The notes under the pieces are model-generated. The model did not search any database. It saw only the letters and a list, made by a program, of their open reading frames with translations, and had not been told where the DNA came from. Position numbers and translations under genes: made by a program. DNA of 51,226 bases. Source: Nostoc sp. DedSLP01. Lineage in GTDB: Bacteria; Cyanobacteriota; Cyanobacteriia; Cyanobacteriales; Nostocaceae. The DNA lies in assembly GCA_034530875.2 (NCBI GenBank), contig JAVRCJ020000048.1, forward strand, positions 1 to 51,226. The letters are read 5' to 3'. How positions within the stretch are numbered: position 1 is the stretch's first letter; each line of letters opens with the position of its first letter. Positions 21,080-51,226 of the stretch are shown in pieces.

Positions 21080-21110
21080 TGTACAGACAAGGGTTAATCG
21101 CGTCTCTACT
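21080..21110. repeat. REP-like repeat identical to 1229-1259
   Basis: Exact 31-bp match. Confidence 0.8.
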
Positions 21111-21544: not shown

Positions 21545-21604
21545 TTGTATTTTGTCCTTTGTCTTCAATCTAAAATCAAAAATTGTCTGACTAATGACCA
21601 ATAA

Positions 21605-25430: not shown

Positions 25431-25439
25431 ATTGAATAC

Positions 25440-25694: not shown

Positions 25695-25821
25695 GAGATT
25701 ACCTTTTTTATTTAATTTTACTGATTTATAACGCTACTTTTAATGAGTTTCCTAGTGTCTGCAAGTTAACCTACACTAAAATTAAGACAGTTTAACCAAG
25801 GCATGAGTAGAGAATTCAGCA

Positions 25822-26226: not shown

Positions 26227-26232
26227 ACTGTT

Positions 26233-26658: not shown

Positions 26659-26730
26659 ATAGCTCTGTAGAGACTGTGATATTAATCATAATAAAACCAT
26701 TTCATCTTTGCGTTATTTAATTTTACTGAT

Positions 26731-26958
26731 TTACAACGCCACTTTTAATGACTTTCCTAGCGTTTTAGGCTCCGGTAAAGGTTCACCATCAGCCAAAGAT
26801 GATTCAATTAGCATTTCTAAAACTTCCTGAGCATTTTTCAAAGCTTCTTCATAAGTCTCTCCGTGAGTGTGACAAAATTCTCCCCATTCAGGAAGACTGA
26901 CCACAAAACACTCATCTTCATCAGACCACTGAATAATTATCGTGTAATGAGAATTCAT
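26731..26958 (-). CDS. hicB: HicB family antitoxin
   Basis: YTIIIQWSDEDECFVVSLP...THGETYEEALKNAQEVL. Confidence 0.9.
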   Translation of the reverse strand: MNSHYTIIIQWSDEDECFVVSLPEWGEFCHTHGETYEEALKNAQEVLEMLIESSLADGEPLPEPKTLGKSLKVAL

Positions 26959-27182
26959 TCTTTTTCTTCCTCTTGAGCATTTTTTATTTCTTCTAACCTT
27001 TGAAGTGCATTATTAACATCTTTCTCTTGGTAAGGTTTAGCATCACTTCCATCTTTACCTGATATAGTAACTCTCCCAGGTAAAAGAGGATGATACCAAT
27101 TAGTGTGACTGCCTTTCCCAGGACGGTAGATAAACCCTGCTTGTAGCAATAAGCTTTTGAGTTCTCTGATTTTCTTAGGCAT
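26955..27182 (-). CDS. hicA: HicA family toxin
   Basis: LLQAGF...GKGSH; ATGA overlap with hicB. Confidence 0.9.
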   Translation of the reverse strand: MPKKIRELKSLLLQAGFIYRPGKGSHTNWYHPLLPGRVTISGKDGSDAKPYQEKDVNNALQRLEEIKNAQEEEKE

Positions 27183-27223
27183 AGCCTCTATTTACATTTT
27201 CACTCCTCTGATTTACCACTACT

Positions 27224-27448
27224 CTATGCAACTTCCAAGGACTTTCCTAGCGTCTTAGGCTCCGGTAGAGGTTCGCCATCAGCCAAAGATGATTCAATCA
27301 ACATTTCTAAAACTTCCTGAGCATTTTTCAGAGCTTCTTTGTAAGTTTCTCCATGAGTGCAAGGCTGCATTATATTAGTAAACTCAGGCAGCAAAACCAC
27401 ATAACAATTGTCTTCTTCTGACTACTGAATCACAATTGTATATTTCAT
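27224..27448 (-). pseudogene. hicB: Second hicB copy with premature TAG at codon 9
   Basis: Manual translation MKYTIVIQ*SEEDNCYVVLLPEF...HGETYKEALKNAQEVLEMLIESSLADGEPLPEPKTLGKSLEVA*; TAG at 27422-27424 where the intact copy has TGG. Confidence 0.88.
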
Positions 27449-27484
27449 TCCTCTGAAACCTAATTACGAATTACGAATTACGAA

Positions 27485-30400: not shown

Positions 30401-30904
30401 TAATTTTTGTAATTCTAAGATATGGTGTAATTCTTCGGAATCTAAAAGCAGTTCTTGGACTTGTGTAAAATACTGTTCTGTAATTGATTGCCAGTTAAAC
30501 TTAGGTGGTAGAAGTTTAAGTTGCAGCTTCTTCCAACTATCTTCTAGCTTTTTAGCGTCTAAAGATTCACAGTTAATATCAAAAGCCTTACCAAGAATTC
30601 CTATAACTAACTTATCGCTAATAAATTTCTTGATGTCTTGAGTATAATCTTTAATTTCAGTTTCACTAAGTTTGCAACGAACCTTTAACTGTTGCTGCAC
30701 CAGTTGTAAAAATTCCTTTAACGCTTTCCCAGCAGCAATTTCTATATCTTCCTTCTTAAGTTTCTCCAAAATCTTGCCAGGGATACCTTTTAATAAATCT
30801 TTAGCCCAATCTTTGGCAGCATCTTTGGCTAAGTCTTCGAGAATGGGTTTAAAAATCAACCCAGCAGCTTGAGTTACACCCCAAATAGCTAACAAATCCA
30901 TCAT
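27485..30904 (-). CDS. NACHT-family STAND NTPase with C-terminal HEAT-like repeats
   Basis: Walker A GDPGSGKS, Walker B VMFDGLDE, NPLLL, FVHRTFLEYF; nine 34-aa repeats. Confidence 0.92.
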   Translation of the reverse strand: MMDLLAIWGVTQAAGLIFKPILEDLAKDAAKDWAKDLLKGIPGKILEKLKKEDIEIAAGKALKEFLQLVQQQLKVRCKLSETEIKDYTQDIKKFISDKLVIGILGKAFDINCESLDAKKLEDSWKKLQLKLLPPKFNWQSITEQYFTQVQELLLDSEELHHILELQKLYSIETNIKQLSGINPDFDLNKYQVGILERYGNVKLDSLDTSGYAYNKLKLWRIFTAQNVREAHQVLPQVHELPKEHLRRLRESDRVEAEVELVELERHKRVYFEQPILCVLDVVNKKQDYKYLVILGDPGSGKSTLLQFLALNWAQSPLDNAISLPIPLLIELRTYMRRREDKECKNFIEFFHQCSGAIAHLNQLELDKQLKAGNALVMFDGLDEVFDPGQREDVITDIHRFTNDYPNVQVIVTSRIIGYKPQRLRDAEFRHFILQDLESEQIQDFINRWHDLTFADAAEKVRKRERLQRGIAASKAIAELAGNPLLLTMMAILNRNQELPRDRAELYNQASRVLLHQWDVERALTEDKRLDPKTIDYKDKQAMLRQVAYLMQTGEKGLAGNLINENDLVKVLSDYLKTIEFDKPREVARVMINQLRTRNFMLCFLGADYYAFVHRTFLEYFCAWEFVWQFKETQTLSIEELKNEVFGKHWQDESWHEVLLLIAGMIEPKFTGEILEYLMVQDGEEEKFVNLFLAAKCLAEVRNRSLIGSTATKLLNKLKDLIKYDLWYYYVPYRDEETQLLQEIHTQAVTAIATTWQDSTDTPLFLKDHATNDDSEYVKMAAVQELARGFKDDLSTLPWLKDLTTNDKSWVVRFAAVRELVNEFKDDADTLPILKHISTNDDHWGVRFGAVQQLISGFKDDTDTLSWLKDRATNDDSEDVRQAAVQEIVRVFKDDADTLSWLKDRATNDDSENIRHIAVEELVNGFKDDADILLWLKDRATTDDNWAMRQVTMQELAKRFKADTDTFSILKQRATQDDNSNVRHVAVEELARGFKDNADTFSILKHCATQDDNYNVRRVAVEELAKGFKDNTDTFSILKQRATQDDNSNVRRVAVEELAKHFKYQLELFEIYHHCAVNDPFKDSHDPPYNPNPRRIALEIIIKQFPRHDQTLPLLRDRAENDPDEEVREFAQKKLAELDS

Positions 30905-31067
30905 ACTGGCGTCTGTTGAGATTTTGATTACGAGTATATACACCAGCTTAAGTAATATTTCCAAATTTCAGACTTATTGCAGAAACAAACCTTAATTTTG
31001 CAGTTTCTACAAACAGTGGGTTGTGGTTAAGCCATAATAGATACATTTCCCCAGAGAAGCAAAGTTT

Positions 31068-33089
31068 ATGACCTGCTGCCTAAATCCAGCTTGCCACAAT
31101 CCGACCAATCCCGATCGCACTGCGTTTTGCTTCAACTGCGGTACAAGATTGGTAGTGTTGAGAAACCGCTATCGCCCAATTAAATCATTAGGTGGCGGCG
31201 GATTTGGTAAAACTTATTTAGCAGAAGATATAGACAAATTAAATGAGCATTGTGTCATCAAGCAGTTTGCACCGCAACTACAGGGAACAGACGCACTTAA
31301 CAAAGCCACAGAACTATTTGAGCAAGAAGCAAAGCGACTGCAACAGTTAGGAAGACATCCCCAAATTCCCACACTTTTAGCATATTTTAAGGAAGATAAC
31401 CATCTGTATTTGGTGCAGGAATTTATCGACGGACAGAATTTATTGACGGAATTACAACAGCAGGGAATTTTTAACGAGGAAAAGATAAAACAATTCTTGC
31501 TTGATTTGTTAGATATTCTCAAAACAGTTCATCAACATAACGTTATTCACCGCGATATCAAACCAGAGAATATCATTCGTCGCAGCGATGGGAAATTGGT
31601 ACTAATTGACTTTGGTGCATCCAAGCAGCTGACAGCAACGGTGATAACGCAAATAGGAACAACCATCGGTTCTTTTGGTTATGCGTCACTGGAACAAATG
31701 CACGGTGGTGAAGCTTACCCAGCCAGTGATTTATATGGTGTCGGTGCAACTTGCTTTCACCTATTGAGTGGAATTCACCCTTGGGAACTTTGGCAAAGAC
31801 AAGGTTACGGTTGGGTTACTAGTTGGCGACAATATTTGCAAAACCCAGTAAGTCAAGAATTGGGGCGAATACTAGATAGATTATTGCAAGAACAATACCA
31901 GCAGCGTTATCAGTCGGCTGAGGAAGTTTTACAAGCGTTAAATTCAGAACCAATACCAGTAACTGTACCTGTTACACCTCCACTTACTCCATCAATCAAT
32001 CAAAAAAAACCTATTCCTATATATTTTTTTATTATCCCATTAATTGTATTAATTGGTGCTGGTACTATTTATTTGCTAGGACTAACAAATCTAGGAAAAA
32101 TAGAACAGAAAAGTGCTGATACTTACTATAAGGAAGGATTAGAAAAATACAACAACAAAGATTTTAGCGGTGCAATTGAAGATTATAACCAAGCCATCAA
32201 AATTAATCCCAACTATGCAGATGCTTACTACAATCAAGGTTTAGCTCACTATGATTTAGGAGATAAGCAAGCAGCTATTGAAGATTATACACAAGCCATC
32301 AAAATTAATCCCGACTATGCAAATGCTTTTATCAATCGTGGTTTAACTCACTATGATTTAGGAGATAAGCAAGCAGCTATTGAAGATTATAACCAAGCCA
32401 TTAAAATTAATCCCGACCATGCAAATGCTTACATCAATCGGGGTTTAACTCGCTCTGAGTTAGGAGATAAGCAAGCTGCGATCGCAGATTATAACCAAGC
32501 TATAACAATTAATCCTAACGATGCAGTTGCTTACTACAATCGGGGTTTAGCGCGCTATGATTTAGGTGATAAGCAAGCTGCAATTACAGATTACAACCAA
32601 GCTATAAAAATTAATCCCGACTATGCAAATTCTTTCATCAACCGGGGTTTAGCACGCTCTGAGTTAGGAGATAACCAAGGAGCGATCGCAGATTATAACC
32701 AAGCCATCAAAATCGATCCTAACTATGCACTAGCTTACTTCAACCGGGGCGTAGTTCGCTATGATTTAGGTGATAAGCAAGCTGCAATTGAAGATTACAA
32801 TCAAGCCATCAAAATTAATTCCAGTTATGCAGTTGCTTACTACAATCGGGGTTTAGCTCGTTATGATTTAGGTGATAAGCAAGCTGCAATTGCCGATTAT
32901 AACCAAGCTATAACAATTAATCCTAATTATGCAAATGCTTACTACAATCGAGGTTTAGCTCGCTATAATTTAGGTGATAAGCAAGCTGCAATTGAAGATT
33001 TTCGTCAAGCTGCCAATTTGTATAAGCAACAAGGAAAAGAACGCAGCTATCAAGATTCTCTAAACCGCATTAAACAAGTTGAAAAATAA
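31068..33089 (+). CDS. Ser/Thr protein kinase with 4-Cys N-terminus, TM helix and nine TPRs
   Basis: GGGGFG, HRDIKPEN, DFG; IYFFIIPLIVLIGAG TM helix; 34-aa TPRs. Confidence 0.93.
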   Translation: MTCCLNPACHNPTNPDRTAFCFNCGTRLVVLRNRYRPIKSLGGGGFGKTYLAEDIDKLNEHCVIKQFAPQLQGTDALNKATELFEQEAKRLQQLGRHPQIPTLLAYFKEDNHLYLVQEFIDGQNLLTELQQQGIFNEEKIKQFLLDLLDILKTVHQHNVIHRDIKPENIIRRSDGKLVLIDFGASKQLTATVITQIGTTIGSFGYASLEQMHGGEAYPASDLYGVGATCFHLLSGIHPWELWQRQGYGWVTSWRQYLQNPVSQELGRILDRLLQEQYQQRYQSAEEVLQALNSEPIPVTVPVTPPLTPSINQKKPIPIYFFIIPLIVLIGAGTIYLLGLTNLGKIEQKSADTYYKEGLEKYNNKDFSGAIEDYNQAIKINPNYADAYYNQGLAHYDLGDKQAAIEDYTQAIKINPDYANAFINRGLTHYDLGDKQAAIEDYNQAIKINPDHANAYINRGLTRSELGDKQAAIADYNQAITINPNDAVAYYNRGLARYDLGDKQAAITDYNQAIKINPDYANSFINRGLARSELGDNQGAIADYNQAIKIDPNYALAYFNRGVVRYDLGDKQAAIEDYNQAIKINSSYAVAYYNRGLARYDLGDKQAAIADYNQAITINPNYANAYYNRGLARYNLGDKQAAIEDFRQAANLYKQQGKERSYQDSLNRIKQVEK

Positions 33090-33200
33090 CTATAGAAATC
33101 AGGTTTAATTTTTGAAATTATTTGTGTAGGTAGGGAGTAGGGAATTCGGCTTTTCAATCTGTAGGTTGTTTTTTCACCAAATCAAATATGATTACTATAG
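33090..33200. mobile_element. MITE-like element
   Basis: CTATAGAAATCAGGTTTAATTT ... AAATCAAATATGATTACTATAG imperfect terminal inverted repeats. Confidence 0.6.
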
Positions 33201-33365
33201 ATTTTCGGTTGATTAAAATTATTTGCGCTAATTAGCGTAGAATTAATAGAGAGAATCCTAATATCAATTCAAAATTCACGCATTAAGAATGCAGGCAGAG
33301 CGATCGCTCCTTAATCAAGATTATCTAGATCTATGATAGAAACAAGCCACTTTATGGTTTAACTT

Positions 33366-33959
33366 ATGTCTTCTCCTGTCCTGGAAAAACCTACGACTTC
33401 TGAAACTTCCTACGTTCTTCTGTACAATGTCTGTTGGGAGCAATTAGAACAGCTTGATGTCGTCCTTGCAGGAACAAGCGCACGACTAACTTATTTAGAT
33501 GGGATTCTCGAAATTATGTCTCCGCTTTCTGACGACCACGAGGATAATAAAAAAACTCTGGCAATGTTGCTGGAAATCTATATGCGGTCGAAGAATATCC
33601 GATTTTATGGACGCGGAAGTGCAACTATAGGTAAACAGGAAGACAAAACGCGACGAGAACCTGATGAGTCGTATAATTTAGGCACAAAAAAATCTATTCC
33701 CGATTTAATTTTAGAAATAACTGTTACGAGTGGTGGAATTAATAAGCTAGAAATTTATCAGCGTTTGCGAGTACCTGAAGTTTGGTTTTGGGAAGATGGT
33801 TTATTATCAGTTTATTCTTTGCAAGGTGACAGTTATATAAAAGTACCTAAAAGTACTTTATTGCCCGATTTAGATTTGGATTTATTAGCAAAATATGCAC
33901 GAATGGCTGACCAATATGATGCGGTGACTGAATATAGCCAGCTAATAAATAAGCACTAG
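33366..33959 (+). CDS. Uma2 family (DUF820) protein
   Basis: RLTYLDGILEIMSP, EPDESY, PDLILEI, VPEVWFW. Confidence 0.92.
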   Translation: MSSPVLEKPTTSETSYVLLYNVCWEQLEQLDVVLAGTSARLTYLDGILEIMSPLSDDHEDNKKTLAMLLEIYMRSKNIRFYGRGSATIGKQEDKTRREPDESYNLGTKKSIPDLILEITVTSGGINKLEIYQRLRVPEVWFWEDGLLSVYSLQGDSYIKVPKSTLLPDLDLDLLAKYARMADQYDAVTEYSQLINKH

Positions 33960-38303: not shown

Positions 38304-38726
38304 ATGCCAGCTAGAGACATCTATCACAACACTGTGAAAAATGCTTTGATTAAAGACAATTGGATAATTACTCATGACCCACTTACTTTGAAGTTTGGTA
38401 AAAAAGATTTGTACGTTGATTTAGGTGCGAGACAGTTATTGGCAGCACAAAAAGCAGAATCAAAAATTGCAGTTGAAATCAAAAGCTTTACTGGCAGATC
38501 GGATATTGATGATTTAGAAAAAGCTTTGGGTCAGTATATTTTATATCAGGATATATTGATGGAATTGGAGCCAGAGCGAGTGCTATATCTAGCAATGCCT
38601 AATACGGTTTTTGATGATTTATTTGAAGAACCAATTGGCAAACTCTTACTCAGAAATCGTCGTTTAAAGCTGATTGCATTCGACTCAAAACAGGAGGTCA
38701 TAAAACAATGGATTGTACCCAATTAG
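38304..38726 (+). CDS. xisH: XisH family protein
   Basis: MPARDIYHNTVKNALIKDNWIITHDP, IAVEIKSF, ALGQY. Confidence 0.93.
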   Translation: MPARDIYHNTVKNALIKDNWIITHDPLTLKFGKKDLYVDLGARQLLAAQKAESKIAVEIKSFTGRSDIDDLEKALGQYILYQDILMELEPERVLYLAMPNTVFDDLFEEPIGKLLLRNRRLKLIAFDSKQEVIKQWIVPN

Positions 38727-39049
38727 ACCGCTATCGCCAGGTGATTGAAACTGTACTTAGTGAATATGCTTCACTGCCTTATTCTTATGCAGATATTCAA
38801 TCAGAAGTAGTATTCGATCGCACCCGCGACCGATATTTGTGGATGGATCTAGGTTGGGATGGCGAACGTCGCGTTCACGGCTGTCTGGTTCATATTGACC
38901 TGATTGATGGCAAAATCTGGATTCAACGAGATGGCACAGAAGAAGGTATCGCCGCTGATTTAGAAAGGGCTGGAATTCCTAAAGAACACATTGTTCTGGG
39001 GTTTCGTCCGCCGGAATTAAGACCTTATACAGGCTATGCAATTGCTTGA
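38708..39049 (+). CDS. xisI: XisI family protein
   Basis: GWDGERRVHGCLVHIDLIDGKIWIQRDGTEEGIA...GIPKEHIVLGF. Confidence 0.93.
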   Translation: MDCTQLDRYRQVIETVLSEYASLPYSYADIQSEVVFDRTRDRYLWMDLGWDGERRVHGCLVHIDLIDGKIWIQRDGTEEGIAADLERAGIPKEHIVLGFRPPELRPYTGYAIA

Positions 39050-39712: not shown

Positions 39713-40078
39713 TCCTAGATAGACACATCGCCTGGGTCAAATAAGGCTGATATAAATCTTATATCGCCAATTACTTAACGCTCCTACACAAAAGCGCAGC
39801 GAAGAGTAAGTGGAGGGATGACATAGCACCGTGCCCCAAGTGAATAGAAGTCGTGGCTCAACGCACAATTATCCCAAGAACCCAACGTTGACACACACCA
39901 GCCCAAAATCAAAGCCCAAAATCAAATATCTACCGCCTGCCCTACTTGATAACAAGTCGCCCTCACGAGTGCGTTTGCAGGCAGCGTGCAAGCCACGACT
40001 TCAATTTCCGGGCATAGAGAGTAGCCACTGCATCTCCCACAGTGGCAGCCAAGTCCACCGATCCTTTTGCGAAATTCA

Positions 40079-41524
40079 ATGACATTACCGTCTACACAAC
40101 TCGTCACCTCCAACGCTACGGACTCGACAACCCAAGCAAAATCCGGTGGTTGCGGCTGCGATAGCAGTACCACCGTGGAAATGGACGAAAAACTCCAAGA
40201 ACGCATTGCCAAACATCCCTGCTACAGCGAAGACGCCCATCACCACTACGCGCGGATGCACGTTGCAGTTGCTCCCGCCTGTAACATTCAATGCAACTAT
40301 TGCAACCGCAAATATGACTGTGCTAACGAAAGCCGTCCTGGAGTAGTTAGCGAGTTGCTGACACCAGAAGAAGCAGCACATAAAGCTTTGGTAATTGGAG
40401 GTAAGATTCCTCAAATGACAGTTGTGGGAATTGCCGGCCCTGGCGACCCACTTGCTAACCCAGACAAGACATTCCGTACATTTGAGTTGATTGCCGAGCA
40501 AGCACCAGATATTAAACTTTGTTTATCTACCAATGGTTTAATGCTGCCGGACTACATCGATCGCATTAAACAATTAAATATAGATCACGTCACGATCACC
40601 ATTAACATGGTAGATCCAGAGATCGGTGCCAAGATTTATCCTTGGGTTCACTACAAGCGCAGGCGTTACAGAGGCATTGAAGGCGCAAGAATTCTCCACG
40701 AAAGACAAATGGAAGGATTGCAAGCCCTCAAAGAAGCTGACATCTTGTGCAAAGTCAACTCTGTGATGATTCCCGGAATCAACGACCATCACCTAGTTGA
40801 AGTGAATCGAGTCATTCGTGAAAAAGGTGCATTCTTGCACAACATCATGCCATTGATTTCTGCACCAGAACATGGCACACACTTCGGTTTAACCGGTCAA
40901 CGCGGCCCCACACCCAAAGAACTTAAAGAACTCCAAGACAACTGCTCTGGTAACATGAAAATGATGCGTCACTGTCGCCAGTGTCGCGCCGATGCAGTCG
41001 GATTGCTAGGAGAAGACCGCAGCCAGGAATTTTCCAAAGATAAATTCTTGGAAATGACTCCAGAATATGACATGGAACAACGCGCTAGCGTTCATGAAGG
41101 CATTGAGAAGTTTAAAGAAGAAATTAAAGTAGCCAAAGAGAAGGCGCTAGCTGGCAAGAAATTTGCCAACAAACCCAAAGTTTTAGTTGCAGTAGCAACC
41201 AAAGGCGGCGGGTTGGTTAACCAGCACTTCGGCCATGCTAAAGAATTCCAAATTTACGAAGTGGATGGTAATGAAGTTCGCTTTATCAGTCATCGCAAAA
41301 TAGACCAATATTGCCAAGGTGGATACGGCGAAGAAGCTTCTTTCGAGTATATTATGAAGGCGATCGCAGATTGCAAAGCAGTTTTAGTTTCCAAAATTGG
41401 TAACTGTCCCAAAGAAAAATTGCAAGAAGCCGGTATACAGACTGTTGAAGCTTACGACGTAATTGAGAAGGTTGCTTTGGAGTTTTACGAACAATACGTA
41501 AAGGAATTAGGGAATAGGGAATAG
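40079..41524 (+). CDS. nifB: Nitrogenase cofactor biosynthesis radical SAM protein NifB
   Basis: [36 protein letters not shown]-terminal NifX-like domain. Confidence 0.98.
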
Positions 41525-41675: not shown

Positions 41676-41996
41676 ATGGCTTACAAAATTACTAGCCAAT
41701 GTATTTCCTGTGATTTGTGTCTGTCTGTATGTCCTACCGGTGCAATCAAAATAGTTGATGGTAATCGCTGGATAGATCCCGAACTTTGCACAAACTGTGT
41801 CGGTAGCATTCATACAGTGCCTCAGTGTAAAGCTGGTTGTCCCACCTGTGATGGTTGCGTGAAACAGCCTACAGATTATTGGGAAGGCTGGTTTGCCAAT
41901 TACAATCGCGTCCTTGCAAAATTAACAACTAATAAACAAGATTACTGGGAACGTTGGTTTAACTGCTATTCTCAGAAGCTTACACTATCAAACTAA
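41676..41996 (+). CDS. fdxN: Ferredoxin FdxN, C-terminus apparently replaced (5' part of an interrupted gene)
   Basis: CISCDLCLSVCP, CTNC...QCKAGCP, DYWEGWF/DYWERWF; ends YSQKLTLSN. Confidence 0.9.
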   Translation: MAYKITSQCISCDLCLSVCPTGAIKIVDGNRWIDPELCTNCVGSIHTVPQCKAGCPTCDGCVKQPTDYWEGWFANYNRVLAKLTTNKQDYWERWFNCYSQKLTLSN

Positions 41997-42122
41997 TGAA
42001 AAATGGGTTGAGGGCAGGGTATAAGCTTTTAGCTGACGACAAACTCTTTCACATCCAGCATCTCTGCGGTATGATTCATTTCCAGTAGATTTTATTTGGA
42101 TATGTGCAGTTAAGACAAAAAC

Positions 42123-42282
42123 GGCGTTGCTGATTGGCGGGATGATTTTTGCCTCACGCAGAGACGCAGAGGAGGACACTTCCGTGGGCGGGTTTCCCGA
42201 CTTGAGGAAAGTGTCCGTCGCGCAGAGAGTAAGAGTTTGAGAAATTGAATTTTTAATTTTCATCCCCAGATTCAGCAATGCC
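42123..42282. mobile_element. MITE with GGCGTTGCTGA termini, internal CGCAGAG repeats and a nested hairpin repeat
   Basis: 42123-42145 vs reverse complement of 42260-42282, 18/23 match. Confidence 0.7.
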
Positions 42283-45200
42283 AAAATTTCCTTTTGTCTG
42301 AAATGTAAATTTTAACAATTCAATATATTTTTGTAGCATTAAGCGAATATCTTTGTAAGTAAAATACATCCTGTCGTACTCCACGTCTATACTTACATCC
42401 CCTTCATAGAAATCTATTGACACAGCATAATTTAAAGGAAAGTTAAATCTGTCGTGGGACTTGCTTCCATTCATCTTCAAGCCAGTATTAACCCAAAGAT
42501 TTTTGGAATTACTGGAGGCTACAAAGTTAAATGTAGTGAAAAATAACTCCATCTTTGCTTGATCTGACAAAATTTGGAGTAATGGATATCTGACATAAGG
42601 TTCCATATCAATTAAAGATTGATGCACATTTTTTATTTGTAGGCTTTTATCTTCAATAGTTTGTTGACAAAACGGAACTATATTCCAGAATAAACCTAAC
42701 GTTTTGAACGGATCGGATAGTCTTTCTGTCCTACCATTTGAGACAATTCCTACAGAAACCGTATTTTCTTTCATTTCAGTTCCAATTAGGTCAAGATAGT
42801 TACTCAAAAATATTGCTTTTGGTGAAACTCTCAATTTTCCACATAATTGACGTAAATCAACAATTATTTCCGAGCCAAGATTGTATCTTTCAGTGACAGC
42901 TTCTACTTCCTCTACTGGAGTGTTTAACTGCTTCAAGGGTGTATATGTATAGTTTTTCAGTTGAAGTTTCCAAAAATTTGCTGCATCTTTCGACCCAAGA
43001 ACTTCTTTCTCCAATGCCACAAACTCCTTATACACAATGTTAGAGGTGGTTATTGTTATTTCTTCTTCTTTCTTCAGAGCAGAATATAACTCGTACAATT
43101 GGTTTAAAAATTCAATATTGCTCCAACCATCTATAATTGCATGATGAATTGACATCAAGAATTCAAACATATTTTCAGATTTTTGAAAAATATGAAATCG
43201 AAAAAGTGGCTGATTCGGATTTTCAATTTGGAATAAGTTTTGCCGATCGCGCTTAATCACACAATCAAGATAATCTTTTTGCTCGTTTGATTTGAGGTGA
43301 CTAATATCTTCCTGATAGATTGAAAATTCCAGATTCTTTCTTACTGCCTGAACTGCTGGCTTTCCACCTTGTATAATAAATACAGTCCGCAAAATTGGAT
43401 GTTTTTGCACTAACAACTCTAATGCCTTCTTGAAAGCATTTAACGAAAGATTGTCATCTTCTAAATCATACAATCCTTGGCAGTGATAAACACCCATTTT
43501 TTGATTGTTCCTTGAGTAATGATGCAACATAAACTCCTGCATTTTGGTAAGAGGATATGCTGATTCAGCATCTTCGGGCAATAATTCGGAGATTCCCTCT
43601 GGAATTTCTAATAAATGGAGGGGTATAGGAACTTGATTTTCATCTCTTTGGTAATTATTTAATCCTTGAGCAAGGCTGTCAAACATCTGATTCTCGAATC
43701 GATCAAATCTATACTCTCTTGGCTCAAGAGATAAACAATGAGCAATTAGCGATCGCAATGCTTCAACAAAATCCTGAGCTAAACTTTCAATTGTCGTATG
43801 TTTGTGAAAATTTTCGCTGTAAGTCCAATCTACCTGTAACTGACCTTCTATGATAATTGAATTAATAGCTAATAAATGACTGCGGTATCCAAGCAGACTG
43901 TATTCTGAACCGATTGATTCGGCGGCTATTTTAAACACAGAATTTTCTTGCATCCCCCAGTCGAATTGCCCCAGGTAATTGAAACTGACTTCAGCTTTGG
44001 CAAGTGCTTCAAGTGTAGAGGTAATTTCTGCATCTCCACTTAAATAACGCAGCAAACCATAGCCAATGCCTCGATTGGGTATGGTACGGAGTTGTTCTTT
44101 AACAGACTTGATTGCATCTCCTAAATTGTCAGTTGCTTTTAATGTTAAAAGCACGGGAAAGATTGTCGTAAACCAACCAACTGTACGAGATAAATCTACA
44201 TCTTCAAATATATCTTCTCGCCCATGACCTTCAAGGTCGAGTAGCAGAGAATTACCACCACTCCATTTACTTAAAACCTGCACTAGAGCAGTCAGCAGGA
44301 CATCATTAATCTGAGTTTTGTAACCTTTAGGAACATCTTGCAATAAAGCACGAGTTTCTTCAATATTCAGCGACACCGATACCGTGCGGGCAGATGCTAC
44401 AGTGTTATCGTCACAAGCAAAGTCCACTGGTATGCTCAAAACCTGTTGACGTGATTGTGCCTGCCAATATGCCAGCTCTGATTTTAGAGTATTTGAGCGT
44501 GCATACTCCGCCAGTTTCAAAGCCCAGTATTTAAAAGATGTTGTCTTGGCAGGAAGCTGAATTTTTTGACCCCGACTAAGCTGTTGATAACCTGAAAATA
44601 AATCCTCTAACAAAATCCGCCATGAAACGCCGTCCACTGCTAGGTGGTGGATAACTATTAGTAAACGGTTGGGTTTACCATTACCTAAGGTAAAAAATAC
44701 TACTTTTATCAGTGGATCGCGAGAGAGGTTGAAGCTAGTTTGTAGGCTAGTAGCAGCAGTTTCAATGGTAGCTTTTTGCTCCTCGTTTGGTATAGTCGAT
44801 AAATCTATCTGGGAAAAAGGAATTGTGTCATAGCTCTCAGTATTGATTTGTTGCCAACAGTCACCAGACTGTACAAAGCTTAAGCGCAGCGCATCGTGAT
44901 GCACTAACAATTGCTGCACTACTTGCAACAACAGGGTGGGGTCGAAAGTTTGTGGTATTTCCAACAGGAAAGCTTGATTGAAGTGCTGAGGTTCTGGTAA
45001 ATTTTGTGCAAAAAACCAGTGCTGAATGGGCGTTAGTGGTAATGACCCAGTTACTTGACCTTGTTCTGCCCGGACAGTTGCAGTAGTACGGGCTACGCTG
45101 GCTAATTCTGCAATGGTCTGGTGTTCAAATATCTGTTTGGGATTGAGTTGCAGTCCTGCTTGATTGGCTTTGGAAATAATCTGAATGCTAACAATCGAAT

Positions 45201-48200
45201 CCCCTCCTAGCTCAAAAAAGTTATCGTCGATGCTAACTTGCTCGAGGTGGAGAACATCACACCAGATTTGAGCTAGTGTTTTTTCAACCACAGTACGGGG
45301 TGCTACTCTAGATGTTGTTAGTTGTTGATGTGCTGTTTGAGGTGTTGGTAGAGAGCGACGATCTACTTTGCCATTAGGTGTTAATGGCAGGGCATCCAAG
45401 ATCGCAAACGCTCCTGGAATCATGTAATTGGGTAGTTTTTCTTTAAGGAAACTGCGTAGCTCACTGCTAGTAGTTGCTAAGTCCTGGTTAGCAACGATGT
45501 AGGCTACCAAGTATTTGTGCGCAGGAACATCTTCTCGCACTACAACCACAGTTTCTCGCACTGCTGGGTGTTGGCTCAGTGCTGCCTCTATCTCGCCCAA
45601 CTCAATGCGGAAACCCCGTATTTTAATTTGATTGTCAATGCGTCCTAAGTATTCGATATTACCATTATCTAGATAGCGTACTAAATCGCCAGTCTTATAA
45701 AGACGGGAATAAGGTTCATCGCTAAAAGGGTTGGGGATGAATTTCTCATTAGTCAACTCTCTTTGATTGAGATAACCTCTTGCTAACCCAACACCACCGA
45801 TGTGCAGTTCTCCCGGTACGCCAATCGGCACTGGTTGTAGGTGCGAGTCTAGAATGTAGACTTGTGTGTTGGCAATTGGACAACCAATAGTCACTTTCTC
45901 GTCTTTTGAAGTGCATTTGACAATTGTGGTACAGACGCTAGCTTCTGTCGGCCCGTAGGCGTTGAAGAAGTTTCTGCCAGCAGACCATTTCTTTATCAGT
46001 TCAATAGAACAAGCTTCTCCGGCGACAATGATTGTTTGCAGTGATGGGAGTTCTTCAGTTGGCATCACTGCCAATGCTGATGGTGGTAGGGTGATATGGG
46101 TAATGCAGTCATCGCGTAATCGCTCAATTAACGGCATACCGGGCATGAGAGAGTCTTTTGTTCCTAGAACCAGCGTTGCCCCCGATCCAAAAGCCATCAA
46201 AATTTCCGAAATGGAAGCATCAAAACTCACAGAGGCAAACTGGAGAACCTGACTATTACAATCTAAGCCAAAAGTTTCAATCTGGGCTTGAGCTAGGTTG
46301 CATAGTCCTTTATGCTCAACCATTACGCCTTTAGGTTTGCCTGTAGATCCTGATGTGTAAATCACATTAGCCAGATGAAAAGGTCTGACTTCACTTGTTA
46401 GCTTATCTTGATTGTTTCGCTCGATTTGTTCGCAGACTTCATCCAAACACACAACCTGCGCTTGATGCTTTGGTAGTCTCTCAAGGAGTGATTGCTGAGT
46501 CACCAGAAATGAAAGGTTAGCATCTTCTAACATGAAGCTTAAACGGTCTTGGGGATATTCTGGATCGAGTGGCACATAAGCCCCACCTGCTTTGAGGATG
46601 CCGAGCAATCCTACAATCATCTCTAAAGAACGTTCCAGACAAATTCCCACCATTACCTCTGGTTTAACGCCCAATGTTTGCAGGTAATGCGCTAACTGGT
46701 TTGCCCAAGCATTTAATTCTCGATAGGTAAGTTGTTTTTCTGCAAACACTACCGCTACAGCATCGGGATATTGCTCGACAACAGCCTCAAACAGTTCGTG
46801 GATACACTTATCCTGGGGATATTCCTTAGCAGTATCGTTCCATTCGACTAGCAATTGCTGACGTTGCTTTGCTGTAAGCAAAGGCAATTCGTAAAGTCGT
46901 ACTCTGGGATTATCAATCATTCCTGCCAATAAAGTTAAGAAATGATCTCCCATCCTGGCAATCATATCTGTATCGAAGCCTTGGCATAGCCCAACCCAGG
47001 CATCGCGCTCATAAGTAATTCGCGCTGACAACTCCTCACCTAGCATCACTTCTAATGTCAGAGGATAATTTGTCCGTTCAATCCCTCGCATATCAGTAAT
47101 TTGTAAACTGTCAGGAGGCGAGAATAAATTATCTCCTTCTGGGTAGTTCTCAAACACCACAATACTTTCAAATAAGGAAGTTCCCGGTGGTACTTCACTT
47201 AATCGTTGTATCTGGGAAAGCGAAATATAGGAATACTGTTCCCGTTCAAGCTGCTGCTGTTGTAACTGCAAAAGCCAAGGTAACAGTTCGCTTTCACTTT
47301 CAACTTGCACCCGTACTGGTAAGGTATTAATAAACAGCCCTACCATAGATTCCACCCCTGATAATGTAGGAGGACGACCAGACACAGTAGCACCAAATAT
47401 AATATCTTTTTCACCGCTATACCGACTCAAAAGCAACGCCCAAGCTGCGGTAACAAAAGTAGAAACAGTTATGCGATGTTTTTGTGCTAAAGACTTGAGG
47501 GTGGCGGTAGCTGTTGCGGATAAGTGTAGAGAAAGTTCTTCGTAAGTCTTTTTTTGTTGAGAATTTGGCGGCAGAACTTGACTTTTTAACAGGGAAGTGG
47601 GAGCAAGAAAGCCAGAGAGGTTTTTTTGCCAATATGCGATCGCTTGATTTTTATCTTGCTGCTGCAACCAAGCAATATAATCACTATAAGGACGAGTTGG
47701 CGGTAAATATAAATCTTTTCCTATTTTCAGAGCTTTGTAAAAGGCAAAAACCTCTTTGTAGATGATGGGTAAACACCAACCATCTGTCAGTATATGATGA
47801 GAACTCTCAATAAATTTGTAAGTCCCTTGGGCTAGCTTAATCAGAGTACAGCGAATTAGCGGTGCTTTATCCAGAGCAAAGCCTTTATTTCTATCTGATT
47901 CTAAAAAGACTTCTAGCTGTTGTTCCTGCTCAAGGGGAGATAAGGAACACCAGTCTAAGTAAGTCCAAGGCAAATTAACTTTCTTGAGTACAACTTGGAG
48001 TAGCTGAGTGCGGTTCTCCCAAACAAAAAGGGTACGCAAAACAGGGTGGCGTTCTACGACTTTCGCCCAAGCCTGCTCAAAAGCAGAAACATCTAAATTA
48101 CCGCGCACAGTAAAGCTTAACTGCTCAAAGTAAACCCCAGATTCAGGTTCGTAAAGGGTATGAAAAAGCATTCCCTCTTGCATCGGGGAAAGGGGATAAA

Positions 48201-48246
48201 TAGCTTCAATATTTTTGTTTTTGTTTGGTTGGTGGGCAGTTGCCAT
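42253..48246 (-). CDS. NRPS: C-A(Tyr predicted)-PCP-E-C, no thioesterase
   Basis: HHILTDGW (C); YTSGSTGKPKG and NAYGPTE (A); FFELGGDSI (PCP); HHLAVDGVSW, EGHGRE, RGIGYG, FNYLGQFD (E); HHAIIDGWS (terminal C). Confidence 0.93.
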   Translation of the reverse strand: MATAHQPNKNKNIEAIYPLSPMQEGMLFHTLYEPESGVYFEQLSFTVRGNLDVSAFEQAWAKVVERHPVLRTLFVWENRTQLLQVVLKKVNLPWTYLDWCSLSPLEQEQQLEVFLESDRNKGFALDKAPLIRCTLIKLAQGTYKFIESSHHILTDGWCLPIIYKEVFAFYKALKIGKDLYLPPTRPYSDYIAWLQQQDKNQAIAYWQKNLSGFLAPTSLLKSQVLPPNSQQKKTYEELSLHLSATATATLKSLAQKHRITVSTFVTAAWALLLSRYSGEKDIIFGATVSGRPPTLSGVESMVGLFINTLPVRVQVESESELLPWLLQLQQQQLEREQYSYISLSQIQRLSEVPPGTSLFESIVVFENYPEGDNLFSPPDSLQITDMRGIERTNYPLTLEVMLGEELSARITYERDAWVGLCQGFDTDMIARMGDHFLTLLAGMIDNPRVRLYELPLLTAKQRQQLLVEWNDTAKEYPQDKCIHELFEAVVEQYPDAVAVVFAEKQLTYRELNAWANQLAHYLQTLGVKPEVMVGICLERSLEMIVGLLGILKAGGAYVPLDPEYPQDRLSFMLEDANLSFLVTQQSLLERLPKHQAQVVCLDEVCEQIERNNQDKLTSEVRPFHLANVIYTSGSTGKPKGVMVEHKGLCNLAQAQIETFGLDCNSQVLQFASVSFDASISEILMAFGSGATLVLGTKDSLMPGMPLIERLRDDCITHITLPPSALAVMPTEELPSLQTIIVAGEACSIELIKKWSAGRNFFNAYGPTEASVCTTIVKCTSKDEKVTIGCPIANTQVYILDSHLQPVPIGVPGELHIGGVGLARGYLNQRELTNEKFIPNPFSDEPYSRLYKTGDLVRYLDNGNIEYLGRIDNQIKIRGFRIELGEIEAALSQHPAVRETVVVVREDVPAHKYLVAYIVANQDLATTSSELRSFLKEKLPNYMIPGAFAILDALPLTPNGKVDRRSLPTPQTAHQQLTTSRVAPRTVVEKTLAQIWCDVLHLEQVSIDDNFFELGGDSIVSIQIISKANQAGLQLNPKQIFEHQTIAELASVARTTATVRAEQGQVTGSLPLTPIQHWFFAQNLPEPQHFNQAFLLEIPQTFDPTLLLQVVQQLLVHHDALRLSFVQSGDCWQQINTESYDTIPFSQIDLSTIPNEEQKATIETAATSLQTSFNLSRDPLIKVVFFTLGNGKPNRLLIVIHHLAVDGVSWRILLEDLFSGYQQLSRGQKIQLPAKTTSFKYWALKLAEYARSNTLKSELAYWQAQSRQQVLSIPVDFACDDNTVASARTVSVSLNIEETRALLQDVPKGYKTQINDVLLTALVQVLSKWSGGNSLLLDLEGHGREDIFEDVDLSRTVGWFTTIFPVLLTLKATDNLGDAIKSVKEQLRTIPNRGIGYGLLRYLSGDAEITSTLEALAKAEVSFNYLGQFDWGMQENSVFKIAAESIGSEYSLLGYRSHLLAINSIIIEGQLQVDWTYSENFHKHTTIESLAQDFVEALRSLIAHCLSLEPREYRFDRFENQMFDSLAQGLNNYQRDENQVPIPLHLLEIPEGISELLPEDAESAYPLTKMQEFMLHHYSRNNQKMGVYHCQGLYDLEDDNLSLNAFKKALELLVQKHPILRTVFIIQGGKPAVQAVRKNLEFSIYQEDISHLKSNEQKDYLDCVIKRDRQNLFQIENPNQPLFRFHIFQKSENMFEFLMSIHHAIIDGWSNIEFLNQLYELYSALKKEEEITITTSNIVYKEFVALEKEVLGSKDAANFWKLQLKNYTYTPLKQLNTPVEEVEAVTERYNLGSEIIVDLRQLCGKLRVSPKAIFLSNYLDLIGTEMKENTVSVGIVSNGRTERLSDPFKTLGLFWNIVPFCQQTIEDKSLQIKNVHQSLIDMEPYVRYPLLQILSDQAKMELFFTTFNFVASSNSKNLWVNTGLKMNGSKSHDRFNFPLNYAVSIDFYEGDVSIDVEYDRMYFTYKDIRLMLQKYIELLKFTFQTKGNFGIAESGDEN
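46981..47001 (-). repeat. 21-bp SDR1-like insertion in a HIP1 site within the NRPS
   Basis: Minus strand GCGAT-[GCCTGGGTTGGGCTATGCCAA]-GGC adds AWVGLCQ. Confidence 0.7.
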
Positions 48247-48333
48247 TGTTTTATTTTGGAGAAACTGGTGGTATAAATTGAGTGTTTCTAAAGCTTTGAG
48301 CAATCAACACTGTCCGAAGCTATAGGACTGTGG

Positions 48334-51226
48334 CTATAAATTGATTTTCGAGAGCAGATCGTCAAGATCATCTTGGCTTAAGTCAACTAAAGGAAAATCT
48401 GTAGGCGTATATCCACCGCCTTCAGGAGACTGACAGTGAGCGATTAGCGATCGCAACGCCGAGCTATAATCATTTGCCAGACTTTCGATAGTTTCGCGTC
48501 GATGGACGTTGCGGCTGTAAATCCAAGTCATTTGCAATTGGCCTGCGACAACTGAGCCGATGACATCCAGTAAATAGCTACGCTTTGCTAAAGGACTCAA
48601 AACCTGTCCAGGACTTTCTTGTGCAAATCTTTGCCACATCGTTGAAGACATCATTTGGTCGAATTGCCCCAGGTAGTTAAAACATATCTGCGATCTGGCG
48701 ATCGCTTGCAGTTGTTTGCAAATATCAGCATTTTGACTTAAATACCGCAGGATGCCATAACCAATACCCCGATTAGGAATCCGCCGCAATTGCTCCTTAA
48801 TCGACTTCAGGGCGACTCCCAAATCGGAGGCTGCTTCAAGTTCCAAGCGGACGGGGTAAATGGAGGTAAACCACCCAACAGTGCCCGATAAATCTACATC
48901 TTCAAATAGTTCTTCCCGTCCGTGACCTTCTAGTTCAACCAACAAAGCGCAATTGCCCGTCCACTGAGCAAACGTCTGGACTAATGCAGTCAGCAACACA
49001 TCATTAATTTGAGTATTGTAAACCGATGGCACTTCCTCTAATAAAGCAGTGGTTTCTTCGGCACTCAGGAAAACCGTTATTTTCTCGGTGCTACTTTCTG
49101 TATTGCCTGCTAACCCCGCAGGATAGTCTACAGGGATTGGTCTAATGTCGCGATCGCATTGAGTTAACCAGTAGTCTAACTCCTGCTGGCAGGAGTGCGA
49201 TCGCCCGTAATCTTCTAGTCGAATTGCCCAATCTTGAAAGGAAGTGGTTTTAGGCGGCAGTTGAATAGTTTTTGTCTGCTGCAATTGTTGGTAGGCTGTG
49301 GCTAAGTCTTCTAACAAAATTCGCCACGAAACTCCGTCTACTACTAGGTGATGAACAATTAACAGCAATCTACCAGGGCGATCGTTGCCTAGTTTAAACA
49401 GTACCCCACGCAGTAAAGGCCCTTGTGCCAGGTTCAATGTAGTTTGCAGTTGATTTGCTTGTTGCTCAATTGCTGCTTGATGTTCTTCCTGCCCCAGAGA
49501 TGATAAATCGATAACTTGGAAGGGGACTTGTTGGCAGTCGTCACTATTTTGCTGCTGCCATCCTAATTCATCTTGCACAAACCGCATTCGCAGCGCATCA
49601 TGATGTACGAGCAATTCTTGCAACCCCTGTTCCAATAACTCTGGCTTTAAGTCTGGTGGCACTACCAGCAGCATCGATTGGTTAAAGTGGTGCGGCTCAG
49701 TCCAATTCTCTTCAAAAAACCCATACTGAATCGGTGTGAGGGGGACAATGCCGGTAACTAAACCTTGTTCGGCAACTATAGATATTGTTGTATTTTTAGT
49801 GGCGATCGCTAATTCGGCAATGGTTTGATGCTGAAACAGTTGTTTGGTTGTGATTTGTAGACCTGCCTGATGGGCGCGGGCAATCATTTGAATGCTAATA
49901 ATCGAATCGCCACCCAATTCAAAGAAGTTTTGAAAAACGCTGACTTGTTCTAGGTTTAAGACATCCTGCCAAATTTTTGCTAAAACTTTTTCAGTACAAG
50001 TACGTGGTAAAACAAAGCCATCAGCATCATTATTAACTTCGTATTTCAGTAAGGCTTGGCGGTCAACCTTACCATTAGGGTTAAGCGGTAAGCTTTCTAA
50101 AATTACAAAAGCTGATGGAATCATGTAATCTGGTAGCTTTTGCTTCAAAAAGTCCCGCAATTGATTTTTGAATGAAGATTGTTCGTAAGCAACTACATAA
50201 GCAATCAAGCGTTTAGAACCTGGAATATCTTCAGAGTCGATAACTACTGCATCTTCTACTTGCGGGTGCGAGGTGAGTACGGTTTCAATTTCCCCCAATT
50301 CAATACGGAAACCGCGAATTTTGACTTGGCGATCGATGCGACCGCAAAACTCAATATTACCATCGGGTAAAAAACGCGCTAAATCACCAGTTCTATAAAG
50401 ACGTTGCGATTTTTGCAAAGTCCAATCGATGAATTTCTCTGCTGTTAAATCTGGACGATTGAGATAACCTCTAGCTAAACATTCGCCACCAATATACAAT
50501 TCGCCGAGTACGCCAATAGGCACAGGTTGCTGATATCGATCTAGAATATAGGTTTTGACATTACTAATGGGGCGACCAATCGGTAATATAAAGTGGCGAT
50601 CGCTTGGCTGCAATTGTGAGAATTTAAAGGCTGTCGCATCTACCGTTGTTTCACTGGGGCCGTAGACGTTGAATAATAATGGCGGTTCTTCTTGCCTTTG
50701 GCTACGTATTCTCTCGTCCACATATTTCTGCCATAGCCTTAATGTTTGCTCTTGTGCTGCTTCGCCGCCAATAAATACCAGTCGAATTGATGGGGGAATC
50801 AGCTCTTTGGTGAAGGATAATTCCGAGGTCAACTGATGCCAGTATGCTGTTGGTAGAATCCAGACGCTTATCTGCCATTCTTCGGACTTTTGCAGAAATT
50901 TAGCGATGGAAGTGTAAATTTCTGAGGTGCTTAAAACTAACTTTCCACCACAGGTAAGACAAGGATAAATTTCTGCGGCTGCGGCATCAAAACTAATCGA
51001 TGCAAATTGCAATACACAATCGCGCTTGCCAATTCCGTAATCATATCTTGCAGCACAAGTGAAATTCACTAAAGAGCGATGTTCAATCATTACCCCTTTA
51101 GGCTGCCCGGTAGACCCAGAAGTATAAATCACATAAGCTAAGTTACTAGCTTGGACTTGAGTGTGGGGATTGTTTTGACTTTGAGTGCTAATTGTTTGCC
51201 AATCGCTATCTAAACAGAAAAGCTCT
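48334..51226 (-). CDS. NRPS, 5'-partial: ...A-PCP-E with C-terminal COM donor tail
   Basis: Frame is open to the window edge (LAYVIYTSGSTGQPKG); FFELGGDSI; HHLVVDGVSW; EGHGRE; TPTDFPLVDLSQDDLDDLL. Confidence 0.93.
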   Translation of the reverse strand, partial: ELFCLDSDWQTISTQSQNNPHTQVQASNLAYVIYTSGSTGQPKGVMIEHRSLVNFTCAARYDYGIGKRDCVLQFASISFDAAAAEIYPCLTCGGKLVLSTSEIYTSIAKFLQKSEEWQISVWILPTAYWHQLTSELSFTKELIPPSIRLVFIGGEAAQEQTLRLWQKYVDERIRSQRQEEPPLLFNVYGPSETTVDATAFKFSQLQPSDRHFILPIGRPISNVKTYILDRYQQPVPIGVLGELYIGGECLARGYLNRPDLTAEKFIDWTLQKSQRLYRTGDLARFLPDGNIEFCGRIDRQVKIRGFRIELGEIETVLTSHPQVEDAVVIDSEDIPGSKRLIAYVVAYEQSSFKNQLRDFLKQKLPDYMIPSAFVILESLPLNPNGKVDRQALLKYEVNNDADGFVLPRTCTEKVLAKIWQDVLNLEQVSVFQNFFELGGDSIISIQMIARAHQAGLQITTKQLFQHQTIAELAIATKNTTISIVAEQGLVTGIVPLTPIQYGFFEENWTEPHHFNQSMLLVVPPDLKPELLEQGLQELLVHHDALRMRFVQDELGWQQQNSDDCQQVPFQVIDLSSLGQEEHQAAIEQQANQLQTTLNLAQGPLLRGVLFKLGNDRPGRLLLIVHHLVVDGVSWRILLEDLATAYQQLQQTKTIQLPPKTTSFQDWAIRLEDYGRSHSCQQELDYWLTQCDRDIRPIPVDYPAGLAGNTESSTEKITVFLSAEETTALLEEVPSVYNTQINDVLLTALVQTFAQWTGNCALLVELEGHGREELFEDVDLSGTVGWFTSIYPVRLELEAASDLGVALKSIKEQLRRIPNRGIGYGILRYLSQNADICKQLQAIARSQICFNYLGQFDQMMSSTMWQRFAQESPGQVLSPLAKRSYLLDVIGSVVAGQLQMTWIYSRNVHRRETIESLANDYSSALRSLIAHCQSPEGGGYTPTDFPLVDLSQDDLDDLLSKINL

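Follow-up and report, generated by a model that had tools for sequence, protein, structure and literature searches.

Elements that interrupt fdxN are already known from Nostoc PCC 7120, and three fdxN elements are listed by Hilton, Meeks and Zehr (2016; PMC4874684), who describe length and gene content as varying within one element variant; the main text of that paper names no biosynthetic cluster as cargo. The paper also poses as a question whether the host gains from heterocyst-excised elements or they are selfish relics, and excised elements are said to remain as circles in the heterocysts of other strains (PMC11249958).

Here we describe a locus of Nostoc sp. DedSLP01, starting from a stretch of 51,226 nucleotides (the window) that is the whole of contig C48. 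It is probable, in our judgement, that an XisF-type element of an inferred 34 kb splits fdxN at a TATTC core, that the four-module nonribosomal peptide synthetase (NRPS) it holds is a passenger, and that the excision predicted for heterocysts would rejoin nifB-fdxN-nifS-nifU. The NRPS cargo is a new class of cargo for this element type, and in the literature searched we found no NRPS cargo in fdxN elements.

Junctions with fdxN and the recombinases

The left junction lies in the window, with the following features:

38304..39049, plus strand: xisH-xisI pair, 5' of nifB and outside the element
40067..41524, plus strand: nifB (Pfam Radical_SAM and Nitro_FeMo-Co), chromosomal, 5' of the element
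41676..41971, plus strand: 5' part of fdxN, 97 codons and the core; the vegetative ORF continues to a stop at 41996
41967..41978, plus strand: left recombination site, the TATTC core inside a 12-base direct repeat common to the right site on contig C13
41985..41992, plus strand: element-side arm CTATCAAA, with an inverted partner TTTGATAG on the element side of the right site
42122..42293, no strand: multi-copy repeat in the intergenic stretch from the NRPS stop to the left site
42253..48303, minus strand: NRPS 2, likely ATG at 48246, 1997 aa, C-A-T-E and a terminal C domain
48334..51226, minus strand: 3' part of NRPS 1 (module 3, A-T-E); modules 1-2 are on C13:203600-208607 and contig C98
51087..51226, no strand: end of the two-copy A-domain repeat that broke the assembly, with an exact 77-base overlap with C98

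The nifB ORF is followed by an fdxN ORF (41676-41996) for a 4Fe-4S protein of 106 aa, and the stop codon comes 25 bases after the TATTC core at 41967-41971. This core is at position 292 of fdxN, within the range of 289 +/- 10 that we set for fdxN elements of the PCC 7120 type. Crossover is predicted at TC (41970-41971), the dinucleotide to which natural site variants in our survey of fdxN elements point; L062 and L067, for example, have TATTC/TAGTC site pairs. Since the arms CTATCAAA and TTTGATAG are inverted and both lie on the element side, the predicted circle junction would form a dyad, with 16 of 26 positions symmetric about TC; the element-side arm is conserved in the 24 other fdxN elements. 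We found no terminator-like site in the intergenic stretch that separates the NRPS stop from the left site (42122..42293).

The right junction is on C13, where a TATTC core (187108-187104) sits in 12 bases identical to the left site (TATTCTCAGAAG) and the missing fdxN codons follow in frame from 187108 downward, with xisF 35 bases and nifS about 230 bases from the site. A TATTC match alone is at chance level; the 12-base repeat, the in-frame codons and the nearby xisF and nifS add weight. Given that the window is an entire contig, the absence of nifS from it reflects a contig break: C13 carries nifS-nifU-nifH-nifD past the right site, and nifK-nifE-nifN-fdxH as well. The 3' piece of nifD was looked for and not located. 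Fusion at the two sites in silico gives an FdxN of 118 aa, followed by nifS-nifU, whose C-terminal tail is nearly identical to that encoded by the intact fdxN of G031 and G032, the closest two among the 60 relatives compared; intact fdxN of relatives encodes 117-132 aa in 8 of the 11 loci parsed. The sole nifS above the family cut-off sits beyond the element and nifK-nifE-nifN-fdxH are on C13, so nitrogen fixation should need excision (PMC4284476; 10.1101/629832).

The sequence-only reading had taken the end of fdxN for the nifB-side junction of an XisF-type element, with the gene cut short after TATTC and xisF at the nifS end, and the two sites, the in-frame codons, xisF and nifS bear it out. 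The second TATTC, the fdxN 3' codons, nifS and the adjacent recombinase for which it proposed a search are all on C13, and none of the contrary observations it named that sequence could decide was made: the right junction exists, and the intact FdxN of relatives has the long tail.

The recombinase gene beside the right site is:

C13:187139-188701, opposite to fdxN, at the nifS end: xisF (Resolvase and Zn ribbon)

Its product reaches 525 bits against NF041201, for which the cut-off is 375, and shows the resolvase-type YARVS motif; it shares 80-93% identity with the 34 XisFs found in 388 other genomes of the family. In addition, nifS lies within 0.5 kb of 19 of 21 XisF loci from GTDB. A second serine recombinase in the element, 27% identical to XisF, is also above the cut-off (519 bits), so that NF041201 alone cannot mark an fdxN excisase. 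None of the genome's 14 xisH matches falls inside the element. The pair by nifB, which accounts for one of these matches, was considered as a part of it and rejected, as its position is outside, and a pair in the same place occurs in G031, a genome without the element; the earlier assignment of XisH/XisI to the element does not hold here. Among the 24 other bounded fdxN elements described below only 5 have xisH inside, and internal xisH/xisI were therefore not treated as defining.

Intact recombination sites and an intact-looking XisF make excision of the element as a circle in heterocysts likely. By analogy with PCC 7120, XisF would cut at the central TC late in differentiation, probably assisted by XisH/XisI encoded outside the element, and excision would restore transcription from the nifB promoter through the operon. 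In contigs of four public runs, three of which may be the source of the window, neither a rejoined fdxN nor a circle junction was seen among 24 of 153 loose-end rows and 15 of 20 joints. Assembled contigs of three public runs cross the junction unbroken. Rare variants are lost from contigs and the cells may have been grown under any conditions, so that these results speak neither for nor against excision. Two lichen runs with a small share of the strain did not count as habitat evidence. If circles persist in heterocysts here as in other strains, the genes would be off the chromosome but probably still in the cell.

Probable continuity of the element and its NRPS cluster

No single contig has both junctions, and we infer that C13, C98 and C48 form one element of about 34.1 kb, a length that depends on two inferred gaps of 178 and 183 bases, over both of which NRPS 1 stays in frame. 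Exact 77-mers (k=77 overlaps) match the ends of C98 to C13 and C48; Logan contigs of 65 and 447 bases are about twice as deep as the contigs next to them in all three runs containing the strain; and the three pieces are collinear in G137 at 85-93% identity. The double-depth 447-bp repeat, the collinear G137 and the 77-mers together link the three contigs. A search for end-to-end overlaps found nothing that joins directly to the right end of C48 or of C13, the link coming from internal 77-mers. Present in the sequence itself are the two junctions, xisF, the nif genes beyond the element and all pieces of the cluster, and an end of C13 carries the start of the window's NRPS cluster; this cluster start, G137 and the contig links substantiate the earlier proposal that the cluster is cargo of the fdxN element.

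The order is predicted to be left site, NRPS 2, NRPS 1 (C48, C98, C13), methyltransferase, carbamoyltransferase, ABC transporter, hphA/hphCD/hphB-like genes, second serine recombinase module, xisF and right site. Positions 42253-51226 of the window are filled by the two minus-strand NRPS ORFs, and the domain order is C-A-T-C-A-T-C-A-T-E for NRPS 1 and C-A-T-E-C for NRPS 2, in which no thioesterase was found. The A-domain code of NRPS 2 is presumably of the Tyr type. The product is predicted to be a carbamoylated, methylated tetrapeptide with Thr first, a probable homo-aromatic residue and two D-residues; a known product of this cluster was not found in the literature searched.

Distribution of cargo and its interpretation

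An XisF of this kind is present in 35 of 389 genomes of the family, which takes the fdxN element count up from the handful in the literature consulted. The 34 other genomes yielded 24 bounded elements, leaving out G373 (rearranged) and nine split across contigs. Multi-module NRPS clusters occur in three of these 24; with the window, NRPS cargo is found in the elements of the L062 and L064 genomes, of G340 and, partially, of L079. These elements hold seven NRPS clusters of about five kinds. Other cargo among the 24 includes type III CRISPR-Cas, polysaccharide, contractile-tail and lanthipeptide genes, and several fdxN elements carry NRPS, PKS or lanthipeptide genes; the labels for L061, L062, L064, L068, L077 and L081 come from tblastn matches and ORF starts rather than from Pfam. 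Some observations speak against pure chance in the choice of cargo: the five elements with NRPS genes all group in a single xisF clade of 8 rows (support 89/95, which is under the threshold of the tool), two elements each hold two NRPS clusters, and in two genomes 8 of 14 and 8 of 16 A domains lie inside the element.

Passenger status is the most likely reading of this varied cargo, of G031 and G032, which are without both the element and the cluster's methyltransferase, and of G137, which has a close version of the cluster and an intact fdxN. The element may serve as a safe landing site, where insertions would disrupt no chromosomal gene; vegetative cells would retain them and heterocysts would clear them from the operon whatever their content, in which case the cluster would mainly serve vegetative cells.

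Compatible with the passenger reading, though doubtful as the reason for the cargo, is a role of the element mainly as a mobile vehicle, XisF inserting the circle into an intact fdxN elsewhere and so spreading clusters sideways. Its patchy occurrence, in 2 of 126 further genomes within the genus and not in G031 and G032, the circle-junction dyad typical of an attP site, an xisF placed beside those of elements from other genera and apart from G030 and G132 (tree support weak) and an inner recombinase module 69% identical to a counterpart on Trichormus variabilis plasmid B all point this way; however, a heterocyst is a terminal cell, among the element's ORFs we saw none for conjugation or replication, near-identical cargo in distant strains was absent from the set examined, and repeated loss from vegetative chromosomes accounts for the patchiness equally well. 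A broader proposal, which we regard as rather unlikely, would make one fdxN-element lineage a recurring NRPS depot, with up to half of a strain's NRPS capacity on a heterocyst-excised circle, excision making protease-inhibitor and other peptide pathways differ in dose or expression between cell types, and the circle moving whole pathways between strains via XisF into fdxN.

The sequence-only reading had gone on to suggest that excision gives cell-type-specific natural product capacity. In its full form, the peptide pathway would be controlled by cell type, the circle being silenced, lost, amplified or newly transcribed, with selection keeping NRPS genes inside. The recurrence of NRPS cargo, the presence of about half of the A domains inside the element in two genomes and the arrangement on the predicted circle, where the NRPS operon and xisF would lie on the same strand, head to tail over the junction, agree with such control, but the enrichment over genome background is borderline (3/24 versus 1.8-3.8% in size-matched windows, p = 0.02-0.09, with non-independent kin), cargo is not biased to either strand (in 12 of 24 elements most of it is on the xisF strand), sister elements have unrelated cargo, the close version in G137 is outside any element, and circles persist in heterocysts of other strains (PMC11249958). 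Expression data were looked for and not found. The case for cell-type specificity is weak, and we think it improbable.

That C48 and C13 are separate NRPS loci, or a rearranged dead nif region, rather than one excisable unit is very improbable: their link does span two unassembled gaps and decayed relatives exist (G373, rearranged; G218, right site broken), but the repeat copies occur only on C13, C98 and C48, at double depth, either resolution of the repeat connects C13 with C48, and the sites, arms and xisF are intact.

Where such elements contain a whole pathway whose product can be measured, the question of selfish or useful becomes testable by setting heterocysts against vegetative cells in copy number, transcripts and product, and natural controls exist in the cluster outside an element (G137) and the element without the cluster (G030, G132). 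Nitrogen step-down would free intact 30-60 kb clusters as circles whose junction is known, which would make them simple to capture. Even if the cargo is only a passenger, it is a new cargo class and a reason to inspect nif regions when cyanobacterial natural-product clusters are mapped.

Comparison with described systems

The element resembles those of Hilton, Meeks and Zehr (2016) in its variable length and content, and differs in that NRPS, PKS and lanthipeptide cargo is found here. Like the fdxN element of PCC 7120, it has TATTC repeats in the same place (292 here versus 289; PMC4874684, Table B) and, at the nifS end, a serine recombinase gene that runs opposite to fdxN. It is shorter, about 34 kb versus 59.4 kb, has no xisH/xisI inside, whereas the PCC 7120 element does, and has a second XisF-family recombinase; the NRPS cluster with its tailoring and precursor genes makes up most of its length.

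With the anabaenopeptin (apt/hph) and spumigin/pseudospumigin/nostosin clusters the cargo shares hphA/hphCD/hphB-like genes and an ABC transporter of one type, and its HphA-like protein is 76% identical to one beside an apt-like cluster in the L064 element. We take the clusters in the fdxN elements of L064, L079 and G340 to have anabaenopeptin and spumigin/pseudospumigin/nostosin architectures. The apt architecture has an A-T starter, a Lys module with E, an N-methyl module and a thioesterase, and the spu architecture an A-KR-T starter and a terminal reductase. The domain order of NRPS 1 and NRPS 2 rules out either type for the window's cluster, which, unlike these, has a C domain first and last, no thioesterase or reductase, and an additional carbamoyltransferase and MTS-type methyltransferase. 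The structures of these peptide families are given in PMC5640712.

The element is comparable to the skin element in sigK of Bacillus subtilis and to others in sporulation genes, where an insert with cargo is taken out of a developmental gene by a large serine recombinase, likewise in a terminal cell (PMC11249958). Those elements are phage-derived and tied to sporulation, whereas no phage genes were seen in the element described here. SPbeta, the prophage in the polysaccharide gene spsM, is a further parallel.

The split fdxN gene and its two contigs

The window is an entire contig (C48) of an 8.57 Mb genome in 113 contigs, and its ORFs confirm the layout first read from it: nifB is followed by a 106-aa fdxN, TATTC at 41967-41971 and two NRPS ORFs on the minus strand, reaching the end of the contig. 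Upstream of nifB lie:

18175-22366: nifZ, a homocitrate-synthase gene and a hexapeptide transferase gene (nifV-nifZ, nifP-like), about 18 kb upstream of nifB
25143-33959: an accessory stretch of two HNH genes, a HicA-HicB pair, a NACHT-HEAT protein, a kinase-TPR protein and a Uma2 gene

The sequence-only reading had also anticipated a second TATTC, the missing 3' codons of fdxN, nifS and an adjoining xisF, and all are present on another contig, C13. Only one of 11 nifS matches exceeds the TIGR03402 cut-off, and it is located there; about 230 bases upstream of it is the second TATTC (C13:187108-187104), in a site with 12 bases common to the window site, after which the missing fdxN codons continue in frame. 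Scripted fusion of the two sites yields a 118-aa FdxN with a tail almost the same as in the unsplit fdxN genes of G031 and G032, the closest two among 60 relatives compared (95% DNA identity). nifU, nifH and nifD come after nifS, with nifK, nifE, nifN and fdxH farther along C13. The nifD gene is also split, by about 48 kb (C13:132331-181223) with an XisA-like gene (132921-134222), two-component genes, pilus-like genes and an xisH-xisI pair, and no NRPS; its 3' part was not found. Further nifH-like genes occur at C7:98875-101706 and C18:109618-110619, one followed by nifE/nifN-like genes, with no nifS of their own above the cut-off.

We infer that C13, C98 (3 kb) and C48 form one element, spanned by no single contig, because several observations converge. 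In G137, a relative with an intact fdxN, a single contig holds the cluster, with the C13 piece, C98 and the C48 piece following one another in that order and 85-93% identity over NRPS 1; both ends of C98 have exact 77-mers in common with C13 and C48 (77 being the assembly overlap length), and no further copies of the bridging repeat were found beyond these three contigs. A 447-base contig of about double depth, exactly composed of 100 + 115 + 232 bases, overlaps the last 100 bases of the window in 3/3 public runs with the strain, which may themselves be the source data of the assembly. Gaps of 178 and 183 bases, by comparison with G137, keep NRPS 1 in frame; using both, the element would span 34,125 bases, measured between the outer ends of both cores.

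Recombinase, sites and inner module

A 520-aa serine recombinase with Resolvase and zinc-ribbon domains (525 bits against NF041201, XisF; cut-off 375) begins 35 bases inside the right site, directed away from nifS. The junction predicted for the circle forms a dyad, with arms TTTGATAG and CTATCAAA around a central TC and 16/26 positions symmetric. In 24 other elements with both junctions on one contig, the cores are TATTC on both sides (18), TATTC with TAGTC (four) or CTC only (one), and one right site is broken. At the right sites of L062, L067, G299, G340 and L077 the two cores of an element are not the same (TATTC versus TAGTC) and have only the final TC in common, pointing to TC as the crossover dinucleotide; crossover there would leave the circle with TAG and recreate Tyr-Ser, consistent with the two-base exchange of serine recombinases. 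None of the 14 XisH-encoding matches in the genome lies inside the element, so XisH and XisI would need to be supplied from other loci, a situation also noted for Calothrix NIES-4101 (PMC11249958). Two elements are possibly dead or mis-assembled: in G218 (L132) an insertion interrupts the right site, and in G373 (L150-L151) the xisF-nifS block is inverted relative to fdxN.

Behind xisF on C13 come a Uma2 gene and then a module (C13:190178-193336; L006:1571-4729) of a 126-aa zinc-finger gene, a second XisF-family recombinase (27% identical to XisF) and a 297-aa uncharacterised protein. The second recombinase is full length in 7/24 other elements and the zinc-finger gene whole or partial in 14/24; on T. 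variabilis plasmid B a 69% identical recombinase is followed by a 127-aa gene. The module may be an integrated plasmid remnant, and the zinc-finger protein is a candidate directionality factor. The 3' end of xisF is present a second time, at 80% identity, beyond the Uma2 gene (C13:189538-189756; L006:931-1149), and extra copies, reaching 33 kb inside, occur in eight of the 24; cargo may accrete at this end.

The NRPS cluster and the cargo of other elements

C13 continues with hphB-, hphCD- and hphA-like genes, an ABC transporter, a carbamoyltransferase, an MTS-type methyltransferase and an NRPS cut off by the contig end. The domain order is C-A-T-C-A-T-C-A-T-E then C-A-T-E-C, with no thioesterase among the cluster domains. 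A crude motif-based readout of the A domains points to Thr, a homo-aromatic residue, a Gln-like residue and Tyr, modules 2 and 3 being uncertain. The first three A codes are the same in G137, whereas its last module differs and lacks the E domain, and hph genes are not adjacent. The DNA of the carbamoyltransferase-methyltransferase pair has matches in 11/300 family genomes, in most cases adjoining other NRPS-PKS genes; on a Mycetohabitans plasmid, too, the pair lies ahead of NRPS genes. The literature searched yielded no described product for the cluster. Counterparts of the terminal E-C end (63-71% identical) in 8/126 genomes of the genus (L054-L058), with an aminodeoxychorismate-synthase-like gene (read by eye) alongside in three of the neighbourhoods examined, belong to a different cluster reusing the same release domain.

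XisF of at least 80% identity occurs in 35/389 family genomes including this strain, and in only 2/126 other genomes of the genus. In the other 34 genomes, 24 elements have both junctions on a single contig (13-89 kb, median 39 kb), nine are split between contigs and one has been rearranged. Part of this set has been described already, since two of the 24 match lengths in Table B of PMC4874684. Multi-module NRPS clusters occupy three of the 24: L062 (FAAL-PKS-NRPS; scaffold-level, with 11.7 kb of N inside), L064 (one anabaenopeptin-like and one nostosin-like cluster) and G340 (one NRPS-PKS and one spumigin-like cluster), holding 5/32, 8/14 and 8/16 of their genomes' A domains. Lanthipeptide genes accompanied by one A domain occur in two further elements and ketosynthases in another two, bringing biosynthetic cargo to 7/24. 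Among the split elements, L079 has a spumigin-like cluster immediately behind xisF; no NRPS was found in the regions examined of the other eight. Other cargo includes type III CRISPR-Cas with RT-Cas1, glycosyltransferase clusters, contractile-tail genes, kinases and giant proteins. The type III systems are at L041-L042 (G030; with RT-Cas1), L087 and L134 (G379), and L110:721-8878 (the element of L067) holds a contractile injection-like set with two sheaths, tube and baseplate.

Windows with at least two A domains make up 3.3-3.8% of the strain's own genome (35-45 kb) and 3.7% and 1.8% of two complete genomes (39 kb). Against this background 3/24 gives p = 0.02-0.09, and 7/24 against 8-12% gives p = 0.002-0.02, values that treat related genomes as independent and use genome windows where other accessory islands would be the proper control; enrichment is for these reasons suggestive only. 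In the xisF tree (27 rows) a single clade of eight contains all five elements that bear NRPS genes (support 89/95, unstarred; post hoc Fisher p = 0.002 excluding the window), and NRPS cargo needs four changes, with 112/500 shuffles equally good.

Predicted excision and the meaning of the cargo

The split gene, the sites, the recombinase and the cargo are all present. Excision in heterocysts would be expected, because most nif transcription starts from the nifB promoter in A. variabilis (PMC4284476) and PCC 7120 must remove its fdxN element to fix nitrogen (10.1101/629832); no rejoined fdxN was seen among the assembled-contig joints listed for the public runs. Since excised elements are reported to persist as circles (PMC11249958), the pathway would leave the chromosome and probably stay in the cell.

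Cargo varies between elements and has no strand bias, and a close version of the cluster lies outside any fdxN element in G137; these observations make carriage of the cluster as a passenger of the element the best reading, and one that we consider probable. Compatible with it, though doubtful, is that the excised circle transfers the cluster between strains. That excision regulates the pathway by cell type, as first proposed from programmed removal, is improbable in view of the same observations and the retention of circles.

In the open literature searched, no description of a biosynthetic cluster inside an fdxN element was found; a passing mention may exist elsewhere. This kind of cargo recurs across genera, and the element carrying it here is a real member of a known family: in Table B of PMC4874684 the fdxN elements of PCC 7120 and PCC 7107 have TATTC at position 289 and a minus-oriented serine xis at the end, compared with interruption at position 292 in the window.
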